A DNA stretch of 21,833 nt from Armatimonadota bacterium (GTDB lineage Bacteria; Sysuimicrobiota; Sysuimicrobiia; Sysuimicrobiales; Humicultoraceae): positions 1 through 21,833 of the forward strand of contig JBBIOM010000032.1 of NCBI GenBank assembly GCA_037443365.1, in the 5' to 3' direction. The notes under the pieces are model-generated. The model was not told the DNA's origin. It saw nothing but the letters and a program-made list of their open reading frames with translations, and ran no database searches. The number at the start of each line of letters is the position of its first letter. Positions within the stretch are counted from its first letter, which is position 1. A program made the position numbers and the translations under genes. Of the stretch, positions 7,484 through 16,148 are shown piece by piece.

Positions 7484-7675
7484 CGGCGATGACGGGGCCG
7501 ACCCACCCCTAAGCCGCGGCCGAGAAGGCCGCCGGTTGCGCCCGATACGCGCGCAGAGCAGGCCGGATCCGGGAGGCGGGTCACCGCTGGTGGCCGTTGC
7601 CGGGCCGGAACAAGGGTGGTACCGCGGGAGCCTCCCGTCCCTTGGGGTGGGGGGCCATTTCGTTTCGGGGGGACG
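7484..7675 (+). ncRNA. T-box riboswitch (Pro), ultra-short stem I
   Basis: T-box AAGGG-TGGTACC-GCG (7612-7626) with 3' arm CGTCCCTT; GA motif GCGATGA; GGGG/CCCC stem closing loop CCGACCCA with Pro codon CCC; lies directly upstream of proS. Confidence 0.9.
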
Positions 7676-7676
7676 C

Positions 7677-9119
7677 ATGTCAATCGAGGGCCAGGAGTTC
7701 GTCAAGGAGATCCCGAGCAAGTCCGAGCAGTTCTCGGATTGGTACACGGCGGTTGTGCTCAAGGCCGAACTGGCCGACTACTCGCCCGTGCGCGGGTGCA
7801 TGGTCATCCGGCCCTACGGCTACGCGCTGTGGGAAGGAATACAGCGCTGGCTGGACGAGCGGTTCAAGGCCACCGGGCACGTCAACGCCTACTTCCCGCT
7901 GTTCGTCCCCGAGGCGTTCCTCAAGAAGGAAGCCGAGCACGTCGAGGGGTTCGCGCCCCAGGTCGCCTGGGTGACGCACGGCGGCGATGAGGAGCTGGCC
8001 GAGCGGTTGGCGGTACGCCCGACCTCCGAGGCGATAATCCTGCCGATGTACGCCAAGTGGATCCAGTCGTATCGCGATCTGCCGGTGCTGCTGCTGCAGT
8101 GGAACAGCGTAGTGCGCTGGGAGAAGTCAACCCGGCTGTTCCTGCGGACCAGCGAGTTCCTATGGCACGAGGGGCACACTGCCCACACCACCCTGGAGGA
8201 GGCCGACCAGGAGTGCCTGGTGATCCTCGAGATCTACCGGCAGCTGCTCGAGGACGTGCTGGCGATCCCGGTGCTGGCGGGCCGCAAGTCGCCGTCCGAG
8301 AAGTTCGCCGGCGCCGACTGGACCTACACGCTGGAGGCGCTGATGCCAGACTGCCAGGCCTTGCAGGCAGGCACCAGCCACTTCCTGGGGCAGAACTTCG
8401 CCAGGGCGTTCGGCGTGAAGTTCCTCGACCGCGACAACGCAGAGAAGTACGTCTGGTCCACCTCCTGGGCCGTCTCGACGCGCCTGATCGGCTCGCTTGT
8501 CATGGCGCACGGCGACGACCGCGGGCTGGCCCTGCCGCCGCGCATCGCGCCGGTCCAGGTCGTGATCGTGCCGATTCCCGGCAAGGACGGCGAGCGGGTG
8601 CTGGCAGCAGCGCGGGCGCTGGCCGAGCGCCTGAAGTCGGTCGCCCGGGTGCGGTTGGATGACCGCGACGAGTACACGCCCGGCTGGAAGTTCAACGACT
8701 GGGAGATGCGGGGTGTGCCGATCCGCCTGGAGATCGGACCGCGCGATCTGGCCGCCGACGCCGCCGTTCTGGTGAAGCGCACCGGCGGGGGCAAGACCAC
8801 CGTCACGCTGGACGGCATCGAGCAAGCGGTGCTCGCCGCCTTGGATGATGTGCAGGCGGAGTACTTCGGCAGGGCGAAGGCGTTCCTGGACGAGCACACG
8901 GTTGCCGTCGAGACGATTGAGCAGCTCGCGGAAGCCATCCGGGACCGGCGTGGATTCGTACGCACCGGATGGTGCCAGGAGCAGGCGTGCGAGGACACCA
9001 TCCGCGAACGGACCGGCGCCTCGCCGCGGGTCACACCGCTGAACGATGCTCCCGAGGGAACCTGCCTGGCATGCGGCAGGCCTTCGACCGCCACGGTCTA
9101 CTACGCGCGGGCGTACTGA
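7677..9119 (+). CDS. proS: Proline--tRNA ligase, archaeal/eukaryote-like type (no INS editing domain)
   Basis: FSDWYTAVVLKAELADY, RPTSEA, VVRWE..TRLFLRTSEFLWHEGHT, QAGTSHFLGQNF, C-terminal Zn-binding Cys and terminal ARAY. Start ATG 7677 after GGGGGGA. Confidence 0.97.
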   Translation: MSIEGQEFVKEIPSKSEQFSDWYTAVVLKAELADYSPVRGCMVIRPYGYALWEGIQRWLDERFKATGHVNAYFPLFVPEAFLKKEAEHVEGFAPQVAWVTHGGDEELAERLAVRPTSEAIILPMYAKWIQSYRDLPVLLLQWNSVVRWEKSTRLFLRTSEFLWHEGHTAHTTLEEADQECLVILEIYRQLLEDVLAIPVLAGRKSPSEKFAGADWTYTLEALMPDCQALQAGTSHFLGQNFARAFGVKFLDRDNAEKYVWSTSWAVSTRLIGSLVMAHGDDRGLALPPRIAPVQVVIVPIPGKDGERVLAAARALAERLKSVARVRLDDRDEYTPGWKFNDWEMRGVPIRLEIGPRDLAADAAVLVKRTGGGKTTVTLDGIEQAVLAALDDVQAEYFGRAKAFLDEHTVAVETIEQLAEAIRDRRGFVRTGWCQEQACEDTIRERTGASPRVTPLNDAPEGTCLACGRPSTATVYYARAY

Positions 9120-9126
9120 CCGCGTG

Positions 9127-9912
9127 ATGAAGCACCTGGCCCTGCGCCGCCCACTCGTGTTCCTCGACCTGGAGACCACGGGCGTCAACCCCGCTTCCGA
9201 CCGCATCATCGAGGTGGCGCTTGTCAAGGTCCGCCCCGACGGGGGGCTGGAGACGCTCGTGCACCGGGTGAATCCGGGGGTGCCGATTCCTCCGGCCTCA
9301 ACGCGCATACACGGGATCACCGACGCCGACATAGCGGATTCGCCGCGGTTCGCGCAGATCGCCCCAGGGGTGCTGGGGTTCATAGGAGACGCCGATCTGG
9401 CCGGGTTCAACGTCTCGAGGTTCGACATCCCGGTTCTCCACCGCGAGCTGGCCACATCCGGCCTGCGCCTGGAGATGGCGAACCGCGCGGTTGTGGACGC
9501 GCAGGTGATCTTCCACCGGAAGGAGCCGCGCGACCTGGCCGCCGCCTACCGCTACTACTGCGGCAAGGAGCTGGAGGGCGCCCACGCCGCGCAGGCAGAC
9601 GCCGAGGCGTGCCTGGAGATTCTCGACGCGCAGCTCGCGGTCTATCCCGACCTGCCGCGGTCCCCACAGGGGCTGGCCGACCTGTTCAACCCGCGCGATC
9701 CCAACGCGATAGATCCCGACGGCAAGATCGTGTGGGAGCGAGGAGAGGCGGTGCTGATGTTCGGGCCGGACGGCGTGCGCGGCCGGTCCCTGCGCGACCT
9801 GGCCGCCCGCGATCGCGGGTTTCTGGAATGGGTCCTGCGCAAGGACTTCGGCCCAGACGTCAAGGCGATCGTGCAGGACGCGCTGCTCGGCCGGTTTCCG
9901 TCAAGGGAGTAG
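9127..9912 (+). CDS. DEDDh 3'-5' exonuclease (DNA pol III epsilon-like)
   Basis: FLDLETTG, RIHGITD, GFNVSRFD, HAAQAD motifs; small C-terminal FG..G..L....FLEW domain. Start ATG 9127 or GTG 9124. Confidence 0.9.
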   Translation: MKHLALRRPLVFLDLETTGVNPASDRIIEVALVKVRPDGGLETLVHRVNPGVPIPPASTRIHGITDADIADSPRFAQIAPGVLGFIGDADLAGFNVSRFDIPVLHRELATSGLRLEMANRAVVDAQVIFHRKEPRDLAAAYRYYCGKELEGAHAAQADAEACLEILDAQLAVYPDLPRSPQGLADLFNPRDPNAIDPDGKIVWERGEAVLMFGPDGVRGRSLRDLAARDRGFLEWVLRKDFGPDVKAIVQDALLGRFPSRE

Positions 9913-9919
9913 GTGTCTC

Positions 9920-10393
9920 GTGTCCTCGGCCACCGATCGCGTGCAGCAGGCCCTCCTGGAACTGGGCCTGGCAGCGCAGGTACAAGAGTTCCCGCAGGGA
10001 ACTCGCACGGCGCAGGACGCGGCCGACGCGATCGGCACCACGCTCGGGCAGATCGTGAAATCCCTGGTGTTTCTGGCAGACGGGCGGCCGCTGCTCGTCC
10101 TGGCCTCGGGCAAGAACAGGGTGGACGTTGGACGGCTTGCCCGCGCCGCGGGCGCCGTGCGCATCGAGCGCGCCGGCGCCGACCGGGTGCGCGCGGTCAC
10201 CGGTTTTGCGATCGGCGGCGTCCCGCCCGTGGGGCACGCGACGCCGCTTGAGACCTACATAGACGAAGACCTGCTCTCGTACGATGTCGTCTACGCCGCG
10301 GCGGGTACGCCCACCGCGATCTTCCCGATTGCGCCGGGGGATCTCGTGCGCGCAACCGGGGGCCGGGTCAGAGAGCTGGCCCTGCCGCACTAG
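9920..10393 (+). CDS. YbaK/EbsC family aminoacyl-tRNA deacylase (trans-editing)
   Basis: TRTAQDAA, QIVKSLVF, TGFAIGGVPPVGH (GxxxP), YAAAGTP. Confidence 0.9.
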   Translation: MSSATDRVQQALLELGLAAQVQEFPQGTRTAQDAADAIGTTLGQIVKSLVFLADGRPLLVLASGKNRVDVGRLARAAGAVRIERAGADRVRAVTGFAIGGVPPVGHATPLETYIDEDLLSYDVVYAAAGTPTAIFPIAPGDLVRATGGRVRELALPH

Positions 10394-10415
10394 CCAGAAC
10401 AGGAGAGGTGGCGTG

Positions 10416-11756
10416 ATGCACTTCCCGTACCTTCGCATCGTCTCGATCCTGCTCTCGCTGGCCGTCTGCGCGCTTGCGCCTGCACCGGCCGGAGGGCAGC
10501 CGGCCCCCCCGGCGCCGTCGGGCGATGCCGCGTTTGCGCACGTGGCGCACCTGGCTGGTGTGATTGGTCCCAGGGTCGCGGGAACGCCGTCCGAGCGGCA
10601 GGCCGCGGAGTACCTGGCGGCGCAGTTCCGGCAGTTCGGGTATCAGGCCGACATCCACTCGTTCCGGTTCCCGTACTTCGAGGCGCGCCGTGTCGAGCTG
10701 CTGGCGCTGGGTGCGCCTCCACGCGCAGTGCCGGCCGCGATCTTCACCTACTCGGCGCCCACGGCTCCTGGCGGGGTAGAGGCCGACGTCGTGCACGCGG
10801 GGCTGGGCCGCCCAGGGGACTACGAGGGGCGGCAGATCTCCGGCGCGATCGCGCTCGTGGCGCGGGGATCAATTACGTTCACCGAGAAGGTGTCCAACGC
10901 GGCCGCGCGCGGCGCCGTGGCGGTCATCATCTTCAACAGCGCGCCCGAGGGGATCATGGCCGGCACGCTCGTGCAGCCGTCGCGCATTCCGGCCGTGGCG
11001 ATCTCCAACGAGGAAGGTGTGCGGCTGATAGAGGCGACGCAGCAGGGCCGCCTGCGCGTGCGCCTGCTCGTGGATGCTTTGACCGAGATGCGCACGACCG
11101 CGAACGTTGCGGCGACGAAGCGCGGCGCGACGCGGCCGGAGGAGATCGTGGTGGTGGGCGCCCACTACGATACGGTGCCCGGCAGTCCCGGCGCCAACGA
11201 CAACGCGTCAGGGGTTGCGGTCGTGCTCGAGGCGGCGCGCGTGCTGGCAGGTACGCCTACCCCGCGCACCGTCCAGTTCGTGCTGTTCTCGGCCGAGGAG
11301 CTGGGGCTGTTCGGATCGGTCGCGTTCGCGCAGGAGCGGCGCAGGGGCGTCGTCGCCATGATCAACATAGACATGGTGGGATGGGGCGAGGCGCTGACGG
11401 CGGGCAGCTCGCCAGGGCGCGACGAAACGATGGTGAACGCCGCGGTCGAGGTTGCCCGGACGCTCGGGATCCCGCTGACCCGGTTCCGGAGCGCGGGTAG
11501 CGACCACGCCAGCTTCGAGCAGGTGGGGATCCCCGCGGTCTTCCTGCACCGGGGGGTTGATCCGCACTACCACCGGCCAACCGACCTCCCGCCGGTAGTG
11601 GATCCGCGGAACCTGGAGGAAGCGACCCGCCTGGTGGTGGGGATGCTGCTACATCCAGCGATCCCGACCGCTGTAGTAGATCGCCGGCGCGTTGGGATGG
11701 CGGCGCCGGAACTCCCTGTACCTGCGCAGCAGACGCCGGTAGCGCGCATCGGATGA
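10416..11756 (+). CDS. Secreted M28 family aminopeptidase with PA domain
   Basis: Signal peptide; IGPRVAGT, PA domain (ALVARGSITFTEKV), GAHYDTV, PGANDNASG, FSAEELGLFGS, NIDMVG, SDHASF, YHRPTD. SD AGGAGAGG upstream of ATG 10416. Confidence 0.92.
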   Translation: MHFPYLRIVSILLSLAVCALAPAPAGGQPAPPAPSGDAAFAHVAHLAGVIGPRVAGTPSERQAAEYLAAQFRQFGYQADIHSFRFPYFEARRVELLALGAPPRAVPAAIFTYSAPTAPGGVEADVVHAGLGRPGDYEGRQISGAIALVARGSITFTEKVSNAAARGAVAVIIFNSAPEGIMAGTLVQPSRIPAVAISNEEGVRLIEATQQGRLRVRLLVDALTEMRTTANVAATKRGATRPEEIVVVGAHYDTVPGSPGANDNASGVAVVLEAARVLAGTPTPRTVQFVLFSAEELGLFGSVAFAQERRRGVVAMINIDMVGWGEALTAGSSPGRDETMVNAAVEVARTLGIPLTRFRSAGSDHASFEQVGIPAVFLHRGVDPHYHRPTDLPPVVDPRNLEEATRLVVGMLLHPAIPTAVVDRRRVGMAAPELPVPAQQTPVARIG

Positions 11757-12299
11757 GCACAGCGGCCTGTGGGGTACCTCGATCAGGTATCGCTCCAGCT
11801 TCCACATGCTGCGGCGGTTGAGCCGCCAGTCGTAGCCCCCGAGGTCGCGGAGATCCACCAGCGCGTAGCCGGTGATGCGCCCGGTGAAGTCCACGTAGGG
11901 GTCGAAGTAGCTCCAGACCATGTCCCGGATTGATCGGAAGACCGGCCGGCGCCCGTGCAGCCCGGCGTCCCGGGATCGAGCCACGGCCCCCCAACGCCCG
12001 CGCCGCCTGAAGACGAAGAGCACGTGATCCAGGCCGTCCTGCGACTCCAGGCTCACCACGAGCGGCGGGTAGCCGTGCTGCTCGAGGATGACCGCGGCGA
12101 CGAGCGCGGCCTCCATGCACATGACCTCGCCCGCCCGCACGACCTCCCGGAACGACGCCAGCGTGGTCCCCACGCGATGGTGGTTGTAGCGCAGCGCGTC
12201 CAGGAACCGCTGCACCTGCTGGGGCGTGCGGTGTGCCTCGATGATGGCTCTCTCGCGGGGCAAGAAGGCCTCCCGCGGCGGAGGGGATGCGCGCTTCAT
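11649..12299 (-). CDS. Vasohibin-like (transglutaminase-fold) putative cysteine protease
   Basis: VQRFLDALRYNH, MCMEAALVAAVIL, DHVLFVF, WGAVARSRDAGL...FRSIRDMVWSY. Start probably ATG 12299; the ORF-track extension to 12575 is only the antisense of the FMN riboswitch. Confidence 0.7.
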   Translation of the reverse strand: MKRASPPPREAFLPRERAIIEAHRTPQQVQRFLDALRYNHHRVGTTLASFREVVRAGEVMCMEAALVAAVILEQHGYPPLVVSLESQDGLDHVLFVFRRRGRWGAVARSRDAGLHGRRPVFRSIRDMVWSYFDPYVDFTGRITGYALVDLRDLGGYDWRLNRRSMWKLERYLIEVPHRPLCSSDARYRRLLRRYREFRRRHPNAPAIYYSGRDRWM

Positions 12300-12343
12300 G
12301 CCTCGTGTAGTTCGCACGGGGGGGTGCGGATGCCTGCCGTTCC

Positions 12344-12372
12344 TTGCCCCGAGGCCCGCCCGATGGTACACT
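12344..12372 (+). promoter_or_regulatory. Putative sigmaA promoter of the rib operon
   Basis: TTGCCC (12344-12349) - 17 nt - TACACT (12367-12372) with extended TG, about 25 nt upstream of the riboswitch. Confidence 0.65.
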
Positions 12373-12397
12373 TGTATTGTAGTCCAACTGAATAGTA

Positions 12398-12630: not shown

Positions 12631-12669
12631 CGCGCCCGGAGGTCTACGGATTCCGGGCGTGATCATTTG
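12631..12669 (+). terminator. Candidate expression-platform hairpin of the FMN riboswitch
   Basis: CGCGCCCGGA (12631-12640) / TCCGGGCGTG (12652-12661) stem followed by a weak ATCATTTG tract, just before the ribD start. Confidence 0.45.
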
Positions 12670-13773
12670 CTCGTATCAGCGCACGACGATACCCAGATGA
12701 TGAGGCTGGCTCTGCGCCTCGCGCGGCGGGCCGAGGGTCGCACCAGCCCGAACCCGATGGTCGGGGCCGTCCTGGTGGCGGACGGCATCGTGGTCGGCCG
12801 CGGCTATCACGCCAGGGCCGGGACCGCTCACGCCGAGATCGTTGCCCTTCGCAAGGCAGGCGGCCGCGCCCGCGGAGCCACCCTTTACGTGAACCTCGAA
12901 CCGTGCGCTCACACCGGGCGCACAGGTCCCTGCACCGAGGCGCTGATTGCCGCGGGCGTCCGCCGCGTTGTGGCGGCGATGTGCGACCCTGACCCCAAGG
13001 TGAACGGCAGAGGCCTGGCGCGGCTGCAGGAAGCCGGCATCGAGGTGGAGGTCGGCTTGCTCGAGGGTCAGGCCCGGCGGGTCAACGAGTTTTACGTGAA
13101 GCACCGCCGGACCGGAATGCCCTTCGTGACGCTGAAGTGGGCCATGAGCGCCGACGGCAAGATCGCGGCGGACCGCGCCGGCGCGCTCGCACTCACAGGG
13201 GATCGGGCGCGACGGTACGCGCACGCGCTCCGCAACACCCACGACGCGGTCCTGGTCGGCGTGCAGACCGTGCTGGCCGACGATCCGCATCTGACCTGCC
13301 GCATACCCGGTGGGCGCAATCCGCTGCGCATCGTGGTGGACTCGCATCTGCGCACCCCGCCCGAGGCGCACGTGGTCGCATCCGCCGGGGAGGTGCTGAC
13401 GCTCCTAGCCACGACCGATGCGGCCCCCCCGGAGCGGGTCGAAGCCATGCGCCGGGCCGGGGTGGACGTGCTCGTGCTCGATCGAGGCCCGGGGGGAGTG
13501 GATCTGCGCGCCCTCATGCATGAACTTGCCCTCCGGGGAGTGCAAAGCGTGCTGGTCGAGGGCGGCGGCACCGTCAACGCCTCCGCCCTTGCCGCCGGGA
13601 TCGTGGACAGGGTCGTCGCGCTGGTGTCGCCCTGGCTGATCGGTGGAGAGCGGGCGCCTACTCCCGTGGACGGGACCGGGCTCGTGGGCGCGGCCGGGGC
13701 AGTGCGGCTGCAGGAGACGCGCATCAGGAGGCTAGGCGAGGACGTACTAATCGAGGGGAGGGTGGCGGTCTGA
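12667..13773 (+). CDS. ribD: Bifunctional diaminohydroxyphosphoribosylaminopyrimidine deaminase / 5-amino-6-(5-phosphoribosylamino)uracil reductase
   Basis: TSPNPMVGAV, HAE, LEPCAHTGRTGPC, KWAMSADGKIA, LVEGGG. Start TTG 12667 or ATG 12697. Confidence 0.96.
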   Translation: MLVSAHDDTQMMRLALRLARRAEGRTSPNPMVGAVLVADGIVVGRGYHARAGTAHAEIVALRKAGGRARGATLYVNLEPCAHTGRTGPCTEALIAAGVRRVVAAMCDPDPKVNGRGLARLQEAGIEVEVGLLEGQARRVNEFYVKHRRTGMPFVTLKWAMSADGKIAADRAGALALTGDRARRYAHALRNTHDAVLVGVQTVLADDPHLTCRIPGGRNPLRIVVDSHLRTPPEAHVVASAGEVLTLLATTDAAPPERVEAMRRAGVDVLVLDRGPGGVDLRALMHELALRGVQSVLVEGGGTVNASALAAGIVDRVVALVSPWLIGGERAPTPVDGTGLVGAAGAVRLQETRIRRLGEDVLIEGRVAV

Positions 13774-14371
13774 TGTTCACCGGAATAGTCGAGGAGCTGG
13801 GCGAGGTCACGGGGCTGACCGGCAACGCCGACGGCGTTCGCCTGACGGTGCGGGCCGGGGCCGTGCTCGACGGCGCCAAGGTGGGAGAGAGCATCGCTGT
13901 AAGCGGAGTGTGCCTGACGATCGTGGGCCTGGTTGGACAGGCGTTCGAATCCGACGTGGTGGCCGAGACGCTGCGGCGGACGACGCTGGGAAGGCTGCGC
14001 CAGGGGAGCCCTGTGAACCTGGAGCGGCCCCTCCGGTTCGATCAGCGCCTGGGCGGGCACATCGTGCAGGGGCACGTGGACGGCGTGGGCACCATCACCG
14101 CTATCAGGCAGGAAGGCGAGGGCATCTGGATGGAGATAGCGCCGTCCCCGGCCCTGATGCGCTACCTGGTGGAGAAGGGCTCTGTTGCGGTGGACGGCGT
14201 TAGCCTCACCGTGGCCGCGCTCACGGACGCTCCCGGATTCGCGATCGCGCTGATACCGCACACCCTGGCCGTGACCACGCTGGGGCGGTGGGGTGTGGGG
14301 GATGCCGTGAACATCGAGGTGGACATCCTGGCCAAGCACGTGGAGAAGTTGCTGGAAGGGGTGCAGGGACG

Positions 14372-14384
<13 letters not shown>
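13773..14384 (+). CDS. ribE: Riboflavin synthase (alpha chain)
   Basis: N-terminal MFTGIVEE, GESIAVSGVCLT, VNLERPL, GGHIVQGHVDG, KGSVAVDGVSLTV, VNIEVDILAK. Confidence 0.97.
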
Positions 14385-15610
<1,226 letters not shown>

Positions 15611-15641
15611 GGCGCGGCGCAGGCCTCGTGAAGGGGTGATG

Positions 15642-16148
15642 ATGCGGGTGGACACTGTCTTTCGTGGGAACGCCGACGCGGCCGGGAGAGCCTTTGCGAT
15701 CGTGGTCAGCCGCTACAACGAGGCGATCACGCAGCGCCTGCTCGATGGTGCGCTGGAGGTCTTGCGATCACAGGGCGCTGCGCGCGTTGACGTCGCCTGG
15801 GTGCCCGGCGCGCTCGAGATCCCCCTGGTCGCGCGGCGCATGGCCGAGGCCGCAGACGGGGAAGGGGCGGTGCCGCGCCGAGCGCGGTACGCCGCGGTGA
15901 TCTGCCTTGGGTGCGTCATAAAGGGGGAGACGCTGCACTTCGATCTTGTCGCGCAGCAGGCCGCGGCAGGAATGGCCCGGGTCGCGCTGGAGACCGGCGT
16001 TCCCGTGATCAACGAGGTGCTGGCCGTGTTCGATCCCGAGCAGGCAGCCGAGCGCGCCGGCGGCAGGGTGAACCGGGGGGCTGAGGCCGCCCGCGCCGCG
16101 ATCCAGATGGCGACGCTTCTGCGCGCGCTGGAGGCATCGGGACGATGA
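15642..16148 (+). CDS. ribH: 6,7-dimethyl-8-ribityllumazine synthase
   Basis: IVVSRYN, VPGALEIP, ICLGCVIKGETLHFD, QAAERAGG..NRGAEAA. SD AAGGGGTG; start 15639, 15642 or 15648. Confidence 0.93.
   Translation: MRVDTVFRGNADAAGRAFAIVVSRYNEAITQRLLDGALEVLRSQGAARVDVAWVPGALEIPLVARRMAEAADGEGAVPRRARYAAVICLGCVIKGETLHFDLVAQQAAAGMARVALETGVPVINEVLAVFDPEQAAERAGGRVNRGAEAARAAIQMATLLRALEASGR

Follow-up and report, generated by a model that had tools for sequence, protein, structure and literature searches.

The 21,833-nucleotide stretch of the Armatimonadota contig JBBIOM010000032.1 analysed here (the window) carries, on its minus strand at positions 11649..12299, a gene for a 216-residue cysteine peptidase of the CPR-C4 family, vasohibin-like and of transglutaminase fold, as indicated by its open reading frame (ORF), its GC content at third codon positions (GC3), its homology and an AlphaFold2 model. 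Vasohibin-like peptidases of this kind are widespread in bacteria, and the present one is nothing out of the ordinary among them; its nearest relative is CPR-C4, not a vasohibin. A first-pass annotation had read it as a bacterial vasohibin-like protease and had singled out motifs around Y38, C61, H92 and S109, all of which are present in the open frame of 216 codons that runs from ATG 12299 to the stop codon at 11649-11651. The GC content at codon positions 1/2/3 of this frame is 0.69/0.48/0.91, as compared with 0.83/0.74/0.50 in a shadow ORF at 11362-12387 that overlaps the gene. The GC3 of 0.91, against 0.50 in the shadow ORF, indicates that 11649-12299 (minus strand) is the coding frame and no chance ORF.

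The reference point of the family, CPR-C4, is a protein of a hot-spring bacterium of the candidate phyla radiation (CPR), solved by Cornish et al. (J Biol Chem 2022) in three crystal forms (PDB 7OB6, 7OB7 and 7PJO) and described there as structural kin of VASH1/2 (PMC9108980). In a phmmer search of all PDB chains, these three entries were by far the best matches to the peptidase (E 4.8e-21, residues 14-139), followed by human VASH2 (E 1.5e-3) and VASH1 (E 0.07). A family profile, built from 30 diverse full-length members (alignment A2), matched CPR-C4 over positions 7-199 with an E of 2.6e-58, and reached the human vasohibins as well (VASH1, E 2.6e-9; VASH2, E 1e-7). In the profile alignment, the family motifs VQxxxxLxYN, hCLEA, DH and GxWGAxxxSR and the next Leu stand opposite VASH1 VQRYIRELQYNH, KCLEA, RHIV, GRYGALGMSR and its Leu; the VASH1 alignment given in the first-pass annotation was correct in this respect. 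Pfam Vasohibin (PF14822) matched residues 20-139 of the peptidase (E 4.2e-5, 23.4 bits), and the same entry is precomputed on many of its homologues among the matches listed. The other collections were less informative: NCBIfam returned only a chance match of the peptidase to RapZ (E 0.22), the defence and phage families of PADLOC and PHROGs gave no match to it, and the ESM Atlas search returned 'hypothetical protein' clusters only. Taken together, the CPR-C4 family is best explained as the bacterial sister group of the eukaryotic vasohibins within the transglutaminase-like fold.

The AlphaFold2 model of the peptidase, built on the family alignment, had a mean predicted local distance difference test (pLDDT) score of 93.5 and a predicted template modelling (pTM) score of 0.90. 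When the model was compared by Foldseek, it gave template modelling (TM) scores of 0.75-0.77 with CPR-C4, at a root-mean-square deviation (rmsd) of 2.2-2.4 Å, and of about 0.5 with VASH1/2, after which LapG ranked. VIA-align superposed 194 of the 216 residues on CPR-C4 (7OB6) with a Z of 24.6 and an rmsd of 2.3 Å. The corresponding Z values were 12.0-12.8 over about 155 residues for the crystal entries of VASH1/2, 11.4 for the cryo-EM vasohibin entry 7ZCW, 8.7-9.2 for LapG and about 7 for transglutaminases. The model supports a vasohibin/transglutaminase-like cysteine-peptidase fold, with Cys and His predicted to lie in the aligned catalytic places. The vasohibin relationship claimed in the first-pass annotation is thus borne out by the family profile and Pfam as well as by Foldseek and VIA-align. 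A homodimer complex prediction for the peptidase scored 0.00 against a mark of 0.42, which speaks neither for nor against a dimer.

The catalytic triad, however, had to be revised. The first-pass annotation had assigned a Cys-His-Ser triad, as was predicted for the vasohibins in 2016 (PMC4866520), but the solved enzymes use the backbone carbonyl of a leucine as the third member: C169-H204-L226 in the crystal structures of VASH1, in which the Leu226 carbonyl accepts a hydrogen bond from His204 (PMC6937246), and Cys61-His93-Leu115 in CPR-C4, which also has a positively charged pocket (PMC9108980). The equivalent set in the present protein would be C61-H92-L114. Since the histidine is held by the leucine carbonyl, S109 would not be a triad member, and it aligns instead with the specificity residue S221 of VASH1. 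In VASH1, S221, R222 and K168 are required for activity, mutation of K168 abolishing it (PMC6937246), and the specificity for a C-terminal Tyr is attributed to S221 together with R222 (review PMC8358657).

The residues in question can be placed on the minus strand as follows. The codon of Cys61, the predicted nucleophile, lies at 12117..12119; the residue opens helix 61-73 of the model and is aligned to the Cys of CPR-C4 and of the VASH1 motif KCLEA. His92 (12024..12026), the predicted general base, is aligned to DHV of CPR-C4 and RHIV of VASH1, and Leu114 (11958..11960), whose backbone carbonyl is predicted to orient His92, is aligned at the sequence level to VASH1 L226 and CPR-C4 L115. In the profile alignment, Ser109-Arg110 (11970..11975; akSr / GMSR) stand opposite VASH1 S221-R222, which belong to the hydrogen-bond network of its active site, and Tyr38 (12186..12188; LeYN / LQYNH) opposite VASH1 Y134, also of that network. 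The motif contexts in the translation are ALRYNHH for Y38, EVMCMEA for C61, GLDHVLF for H92 and VARSRDA for S109. The His-to-Ser spacing of 17 residues, which the first-pass annotation had found to be shared with VASH1, is the same in H92-S109 and H204-S221, and the His-to-Leu spacing is likewise 22 residues in both proteins (H92-L114 and H204-L226).

These positions are well conserved. C61, H92, G104 and W158 are invariant in the 30 members of alignment A2, and S109 and L114 are conserved in at least 90% of them. We also counted 73 representatives, near-full-length members of 50%-identity clusters that include some visibly frame-shifted metagenome calls; 63 of the 73 remain when both Cys and His are required. 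Cys61 is present in 64/73, His92 in 70/73, Leu114 in 63/73 and Tyr38 in 55/73, and position 109 is Ser in 67/73. Position 110 is Arg in 51/73 and Asn in 13/73, and position 83 is Ser in 37/73 and Asp in 26/73. Y131 of an SY motif (56/73) is common to CPR-C4, whereas Y38 is not, CPR-C4 having Asn in its place. For the subfamily 3DM CP01A, the published conservation is 99.9% for Cys61 and His93, and 92.5% for the Tyr that positions the Leu carbonyl (PMC9108980). Among the 120 closest homologues, 119 of which were parsed, the Ser-Arg pair at 109-110 and Leu at 114 are both found in 119/119, and the residue preceding the nucleophile is His in 98, Met in 20 and Pro in one. As judged from the aligned residues, the family appears to split into an SR subgroup, with the present protein, and an SN/TN subgroup, with CPR-C4.

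The peptidase contains 38 Arg and has an isoelectric point (pI) of 10.9. For the core, the median pI of 41 SR-type representatives is 10.6 and that of 11 SN-type ones is 9.5, which supports the basic character as a family trait. The very basic sequence stressed in the first-pass annotation is therefore family-wide, and it fits the positively charged pockets of CPR-C4 (PMC9108980) and VASH1 (PMC6937246); in VASH1, the acidic tubulin tail is taken by the positively charged surface (PMC6937246).

The family is large. A word-index search returned at least 7998 homologues at E ≤ 0.001 (7998 of 8000 scored candidates), and an exhaustive search gave 1173 clusters at 50% identity with E ≤ 0.001, or 641 with E ≤ 1e-10. 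Searches with two peptide patterns located at least 577 matches in the genomes of representative species. The 80 best of these all lie in metagenome-assembled genomes, whose titles name Armatimonadota (including Candidatus Fervidifonticultor, Calidihabitans and CSP1-3), Dormiibacterota, Acidobacteriota (many of them Pyrinomonadaceae), Chloroflexi, Obscuribacterales, Verrucomicrobiia and Actinomycetes; the family is present also in CPR bacteria (PMC9108980). The gene is single-copy in its own 2.2-Mb genome. Of 41 relatives, 31 have it, likewise once per genome, as do 44 of the 60 genomes that sample the phylum; both counts take in the unpublished genomes G015 and G024, each of which has the gene. 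Identity to the peptidase is 67-89% in those listed relatives whose matches are full-length, at E ≤ 1e-93. Five DNA runs from subsurface metagenomes contain the whole stretch or part of it, and no RNA run was listed as containing it. Fragments of the gene were also seen in relatives, corresponding to residues 6-55 at G008:C11:45337-45486 and to about residues 9-44 at G060:C18:5929-6036, and the gene lies in two pieces with a TGA at G026:C13:573-970; these suggest gene decay in some lineages, or assembly breaks.

By analogy with CPR-C4 and the vasohibins, the protein is probably a thiol peptidase working as they do. By homology, the nucleophile would be Cys61, which starts a buried helix, and the general base His92 on the neighbouring strand. 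His92 would be oriented by the backbone carbonyl of Leu114 and not by an acidic side chain, and the site would be lined by Ser109, Arg110 and Tyr38, the equivalents of VASH1 S221, R222 and Y134. No N-terminal signal peptide was found in the peptidase, in agreement with the cytoplasmic location given in the first-pass annotation, and the only hydrophobic 19-mer window is the active-site helix bearing Cys61. The enzyme is best explained as soluble, very basic and stand-alone.

As for the reaction, we prefer the hypothesis that the enzyme may remove the last residue, or the last few, from acidic protein tails with a free C-terminus, a tentative proposal that falls short of being probable. It is preferred because the Ser-Arg pair is retained, and the retained Ser-Arg-Tyr site together with the basic surface makes the trimming of acidic tails the most attractive reading. 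The proposal of the first-pass annotation, that the protein may act on an acidic tail as a carboxypeptidase or isopeptidase, is plausible. The wider idea that the SR subgroup consists of tail-trimming carboxypeptidases, which would remove a terminal aromatic or hydrophobic residue from acidic bacterial tails much as tubulin is detyrosinated, is a long shot. A crude scan of the genome for acidic tails with an aromatic end listed SSB (..EQEVPF), GroEL (..PDEDF), RpoB (..LVEDY) and one exported-looking protein, which are candidates and not evidence. A search for TTL, as a candidate ligase opposing the peptidase, gave no match in the own genome nor in the control genomes and is thus uninformative. 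We also observed a 303-codon stop-to-stop frame, oxidoreductase-like, at G000:C2:18369-19280 (minus strand), which ends in ..FFSVEEY; the terminal -EEY is as in alpha-tubulin, and the frame is a candidate only.

A literature search on CPR-C4, vasohibin and vasohibin-like bacterial proteins found no paper assigning a substrate to the bacterial family, consistent with what the first-pass annotation had said. The authors of CPR-C4 report its gene neighbours as uninformative and leave the natural substrate open (PMC9108980), and PMC11974145 only cites the CPR-C4 work. The remark in the first-pass annotation that prokaryotic homologues had been noted computationally understates the record, since CPR-C4 has been crystallised in three forms and assayed as a protease in vitro.

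After C-terminal trimming, the next option would be that the enzyme cleaves acidic peptides internally and with less specificity. The protein could be a broad-specificity cytoplasmic endopeptidase that degrades peptides or proteins, perhaps acidic ones, for turnover or nutrition, as the CPR-C4 authors suggested for CPR bacteria; we regard this as possible, though on the whole doubtful. CPR-C4 cleaves BODIPY-casein, an unrelated substrate, in vitro at nanomolar enzyme (PMC9108980), and no dedicated partner gene was seen in any lineage examined. However, VASH1/2, the closest characterised relatives with known targets, are highly specific, and the Ser-Arg pair that reads the free C-terminus in VASH1 is kept, as mentioned above, in all of the parsed close homologues. 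The CPR-C4 authors themselves expected high specificity (PMC9108980), and an unregulated broad protease loose in the cytoplasm would be harmful.

It is also conceivable, but unlikely, that the same Cys-His chemistry acts on a non-peptide bond, the protein being an isopeptidase, amidase, deamidase or acyl-transferase that works on a modified protein, a poly-gamma-glutamyl cofactor tail or a cell-envelope precursor. Other transglutaminase-fold enzymes act in this way, an isopeptidase was raised in the first-pass annotation, and the fold was matched to transglutaminases, the pseudomurein endoisopeptidase PeiP, PNGase, arylamine N-acyltransferases and an amide synthase (Z about 7, or Foldseek E 0.01-0.1). 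CPR-C4 and the vasohibins, however, are matched much more strongly (Z 24.6 and 12.8 as compared with 7), and both CPR-C4 and VASH1 hydrolyse ordinary peptide bonds. A search of the own genome (97.7% complete) for the Pfam family RimK, a glutamate ligase that might build such a removable tail, gave no match. The riboflavin operon next to the peptidase gene points away from it, with a riboswitch in between, and this arrangement is not conserved. The protein might instead be an enzyme of weakened activity, or one that only binds and does not catalyse, but this is highly improbable: although Met60 takes the place of the His found in 98/119 close homologues and of VASH1 K168, Cys61, His92, Leu114, Ser109 and Arg110 are all intact, the Met variant is retained together with the catalytic residues in 20 proteins of the clade, and the coding signature is strong, as is the identity to the full-length relatives given above.

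Several points weigh against the explanation preferred above. The Pfam Vasohibin score of 23.4 bits does not reach the gathering cut-off of 24 bits, and the closeness of Cys61, His92 and Leu114 is one that we infer from superposition of the model on CPR-C4. Met60 directly precedes the nucleophile, a place taken by His in CPR-C4 and most of the family and by Lys168 in VASH1. The one assay of a family member, the dequenching of heavily labelled casein by CPR-C4, reports internal cuts and not the loss of a single C-terminal residue, which disfavours a strict carboxypeptidase, and because CPR-C4 has Thr-Asn and Asn in their places, Ser-Arg and Tyr38 would not be needed for casein cleavage. The gene is absent from 16 of the 60 phylum-sample genomes, whole genera among them, suggesting that it is common yet dispensable. 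No neighbour or fusion partner is conserved across lineages (see below), so that the context gives no pointer to a natural substrate. The gene, its homology, the predicted fold and the conservation of residues are results of this analysis, and in vitro casein cleavage was demonstrated by others for CPR-C4; enzymatic activity of the peptidase, a carboxypeptidase mode and any substrate are inferred.

The start of the gene deserves comment. The database version of the protein (P0002) has 204 residues and begins at a TTG, codon 13, twelve codons inside ATG 12299. We prefer the ATG because the N-terminal PPPRxAF is conserved in homologues with an equivalent start; in the window, the P0002 start removes this conserved N-terminus (12264-12299, minus strand). 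No Shine-Dalgarno sequence was found at a normal distance from ATG 12299. A GAGG lies upstream of the ATG, separated from it by one base only, suggesting that the mRNA of the peptidase may have an unusual leader or none. Neither a sigma-70-type promoter nor an intrinsic terminator for the gene was found in promoter and terminator scans.

The window is a piece of ordinary chromosome. Its 5' part holds ddl, dapF and genes for a phosphoglycerate mutase, a major facilitator superfamily (MFS) transporter, a thioesterase and a CitMHS transporter, followed in order by proS, an RNase T-like exonuclease, a YbaK-type editing protein, an M28/PA peptidase and the peptidase gene, which is alone on the minus strand of the window. 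At 7536-10393 (plus strand), the prolyl-tRNA synthetase with a ProRS-C_1 domain, the RNase T-like exonuclease and the free-standing YbaK-type aminoacyl-tRNA editing protein together look like a small translation-fidelity cluster. The 3' part contains a flavin mononucleotide (FMN) riboswitch, ribD-ribE-ribBA-ribH, an amidohydrolase, a superoxide dismutase and a pair of extracytoplasmic function (ECF) sigma and anti-sigma factors. The FMN riboswitch (RF00050; 12395-12543, plus strand) scored 99.2 bits (E 3e-22), and the ribD-ribE-ribBA-ribH operon downstream of it occupies 12667-16148 on the same strand. The 95-bp spacer between the peptidase start and the divergent riboswitch (12300..12394) must hold both promoters, and a scan of it found no consensus promoter. 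On its other side, the peptidase gene faces that of the M28 peptidase in convergent orientation; outside close kin, neither of the two arrangements is kept. The ORF of the M28/PA-domain peptidase, of secreted type (10284-11756, plus strand), overlaps the 3' end of the peptidase gene by 108 nt, and its last 36 residues look like unconstrained read-on, since its GC3 in the overlap is 0.58 as compared with 0.91 for the peptidase gene.

To describe the neighbourhoods of the SR subgroup, ORFs within 6 kb were clustered for 80 loci from species-representative genomes. Phosphoenolpyruvate carboxykinase (PEPCK) was a neighbour in 31/80 loci, nearly all titled Pyrinomonadaceae or other Acidobacteriota, and an M28 peptidase in 8/80, among the matches closest to the protein of the window. 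Other recurrent neighbours were an ATP-binding cassette (ABC) ATPase, a DEAD helicase, a cupin, a methyltransferase and a periplasmic binding protein. No neighbour crossed phyla coherently among these 80 loci, the recurrent ones being lineage-bound. For the SN subgroup, the CPR-C4-like one, 41 of 80 metagenome loci were of sufficient length (≥4.5 kb), and none of the neighbour clusters was shared by more than 7 of these 41. Within this set (loci L101-L180), 65 homologue ORFs were present in the 41 loci, 8 of them directly up- or downstream on the same strand, suggesting that some genomes carry tandem SN-type paralogues.

A search of longer proteins for fusions gave 14 matches, 7 of which carried CusF and/or SCO1 Pfam domains. 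The apparent CusF-SCO1 fusions were rejected at the level of the protein sequences, since an internal Met at the normal start or a truncated SCO1 suggests that they are merged neighbouring genes of one lineage. In these apparently merged calls (P0272, P0276, P0277, P0279, P0242, P0281 and P0282), the immediate upstream neighbour is a CusF-SCO1 copper-chaperone gene of the same strand; P0272, for example, has a full SCO1 domain and then an internal Met at the usual peptidase start.

What is new here is a further member of a known, structurally characterised family, and by itself it adds little. Its interest lies in the family, which is large (the 1173 clusters mentioned above) and spread over many phyla, yet has no known natural substrate. 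Most members outside the CPR keep the vasohibin Ser-Arg pair that is absent from the crystallised CPR-C4, and the link of the family to the vasohibins can be reached by sequence profiles alone (E about 1e-9). The retained pair and the profile link suggest that C-terminal processing, and a more vasohibin-like representative than CPR-C4, are worth targeting. If a defined C-terminal trimming reaction were found, it would open up a kind of post-translational control not yet described in bacteria; loss of the terminal Phe from SSB, for example, would inactivate the tail by which it binds partners.

In comparison with named systems, CPR-C4 is the closest. It is of the same family and length class, with its Cys-His-Leu positions aligned with those of the peptidase, and both proteins are basic, lack a signal peptide and are encoded by a stand-alone gene. 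They differ in that their identity in the structural alignment is 27-29%, and CPR-C4 has Thr-Asn at Ser109-Arg110 and Asn at Tyr38 (phmmer alignment), and His before the Cys where the peptidase has Met60. CPR-C4 is a homodimer with a tri-aspartate zinc site (D83, D92 and D182), which its authors regard as stabilising and not catalytic (PMC9108980). The peptidase keeps only D91 of this site, the other places being taken by S83 and I173/E174. Since Asp is found at position 83 in only 26/73 representatives, the zinc site would mark a subgroup and not the whole family. The hosts differ as well, a CPR bacterium as compared with a non-CPR lineage of 69% GC here, which has Armatimonadota-labelled metagenome-assembled genomes as its nearest named relatives.

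LapG of the BTLCP group (PDB 4FGO) shares the superfamily fold and the Cys-His chemistry and is the next-best structural match after the vasohibins. In contrast to the peptidase, it is periplasmic and calcium-dependent and has a Cys-His-Asp triad; their identity is 10-12%, and there is no match at the sequence level.

The vasohibins VASH1 and VASH2 are tubulinyl-Tyr carboxypeptidases. They are about 17% identical to the peptidase, and K168 of VASH1 is replaced by Met60. The contacts of VASH1 with SVBP span W74-L101 (PMC6937246). The N-terminal helices that hold SVBP have no counterpart in the peptidase, as the structural alignment covers VASH1 108-289 and the peptidase fold starts at about residue 14. 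We know of no SVBP partner in bacteria, and the organism has, to our knowledge, no tubulin and hence no vasohibin substrate. On the other hand, the core is homologous and the Cys-His-Leu(carbonyl) places are aligned in the profile alignment. The peptidase further keeps the Ser-Arg pair (S221 and R222) and the YN motif (Tyr134) of VASH1 as S109, R110 and Y38, together with a basic surface that would suit an acidic tail.

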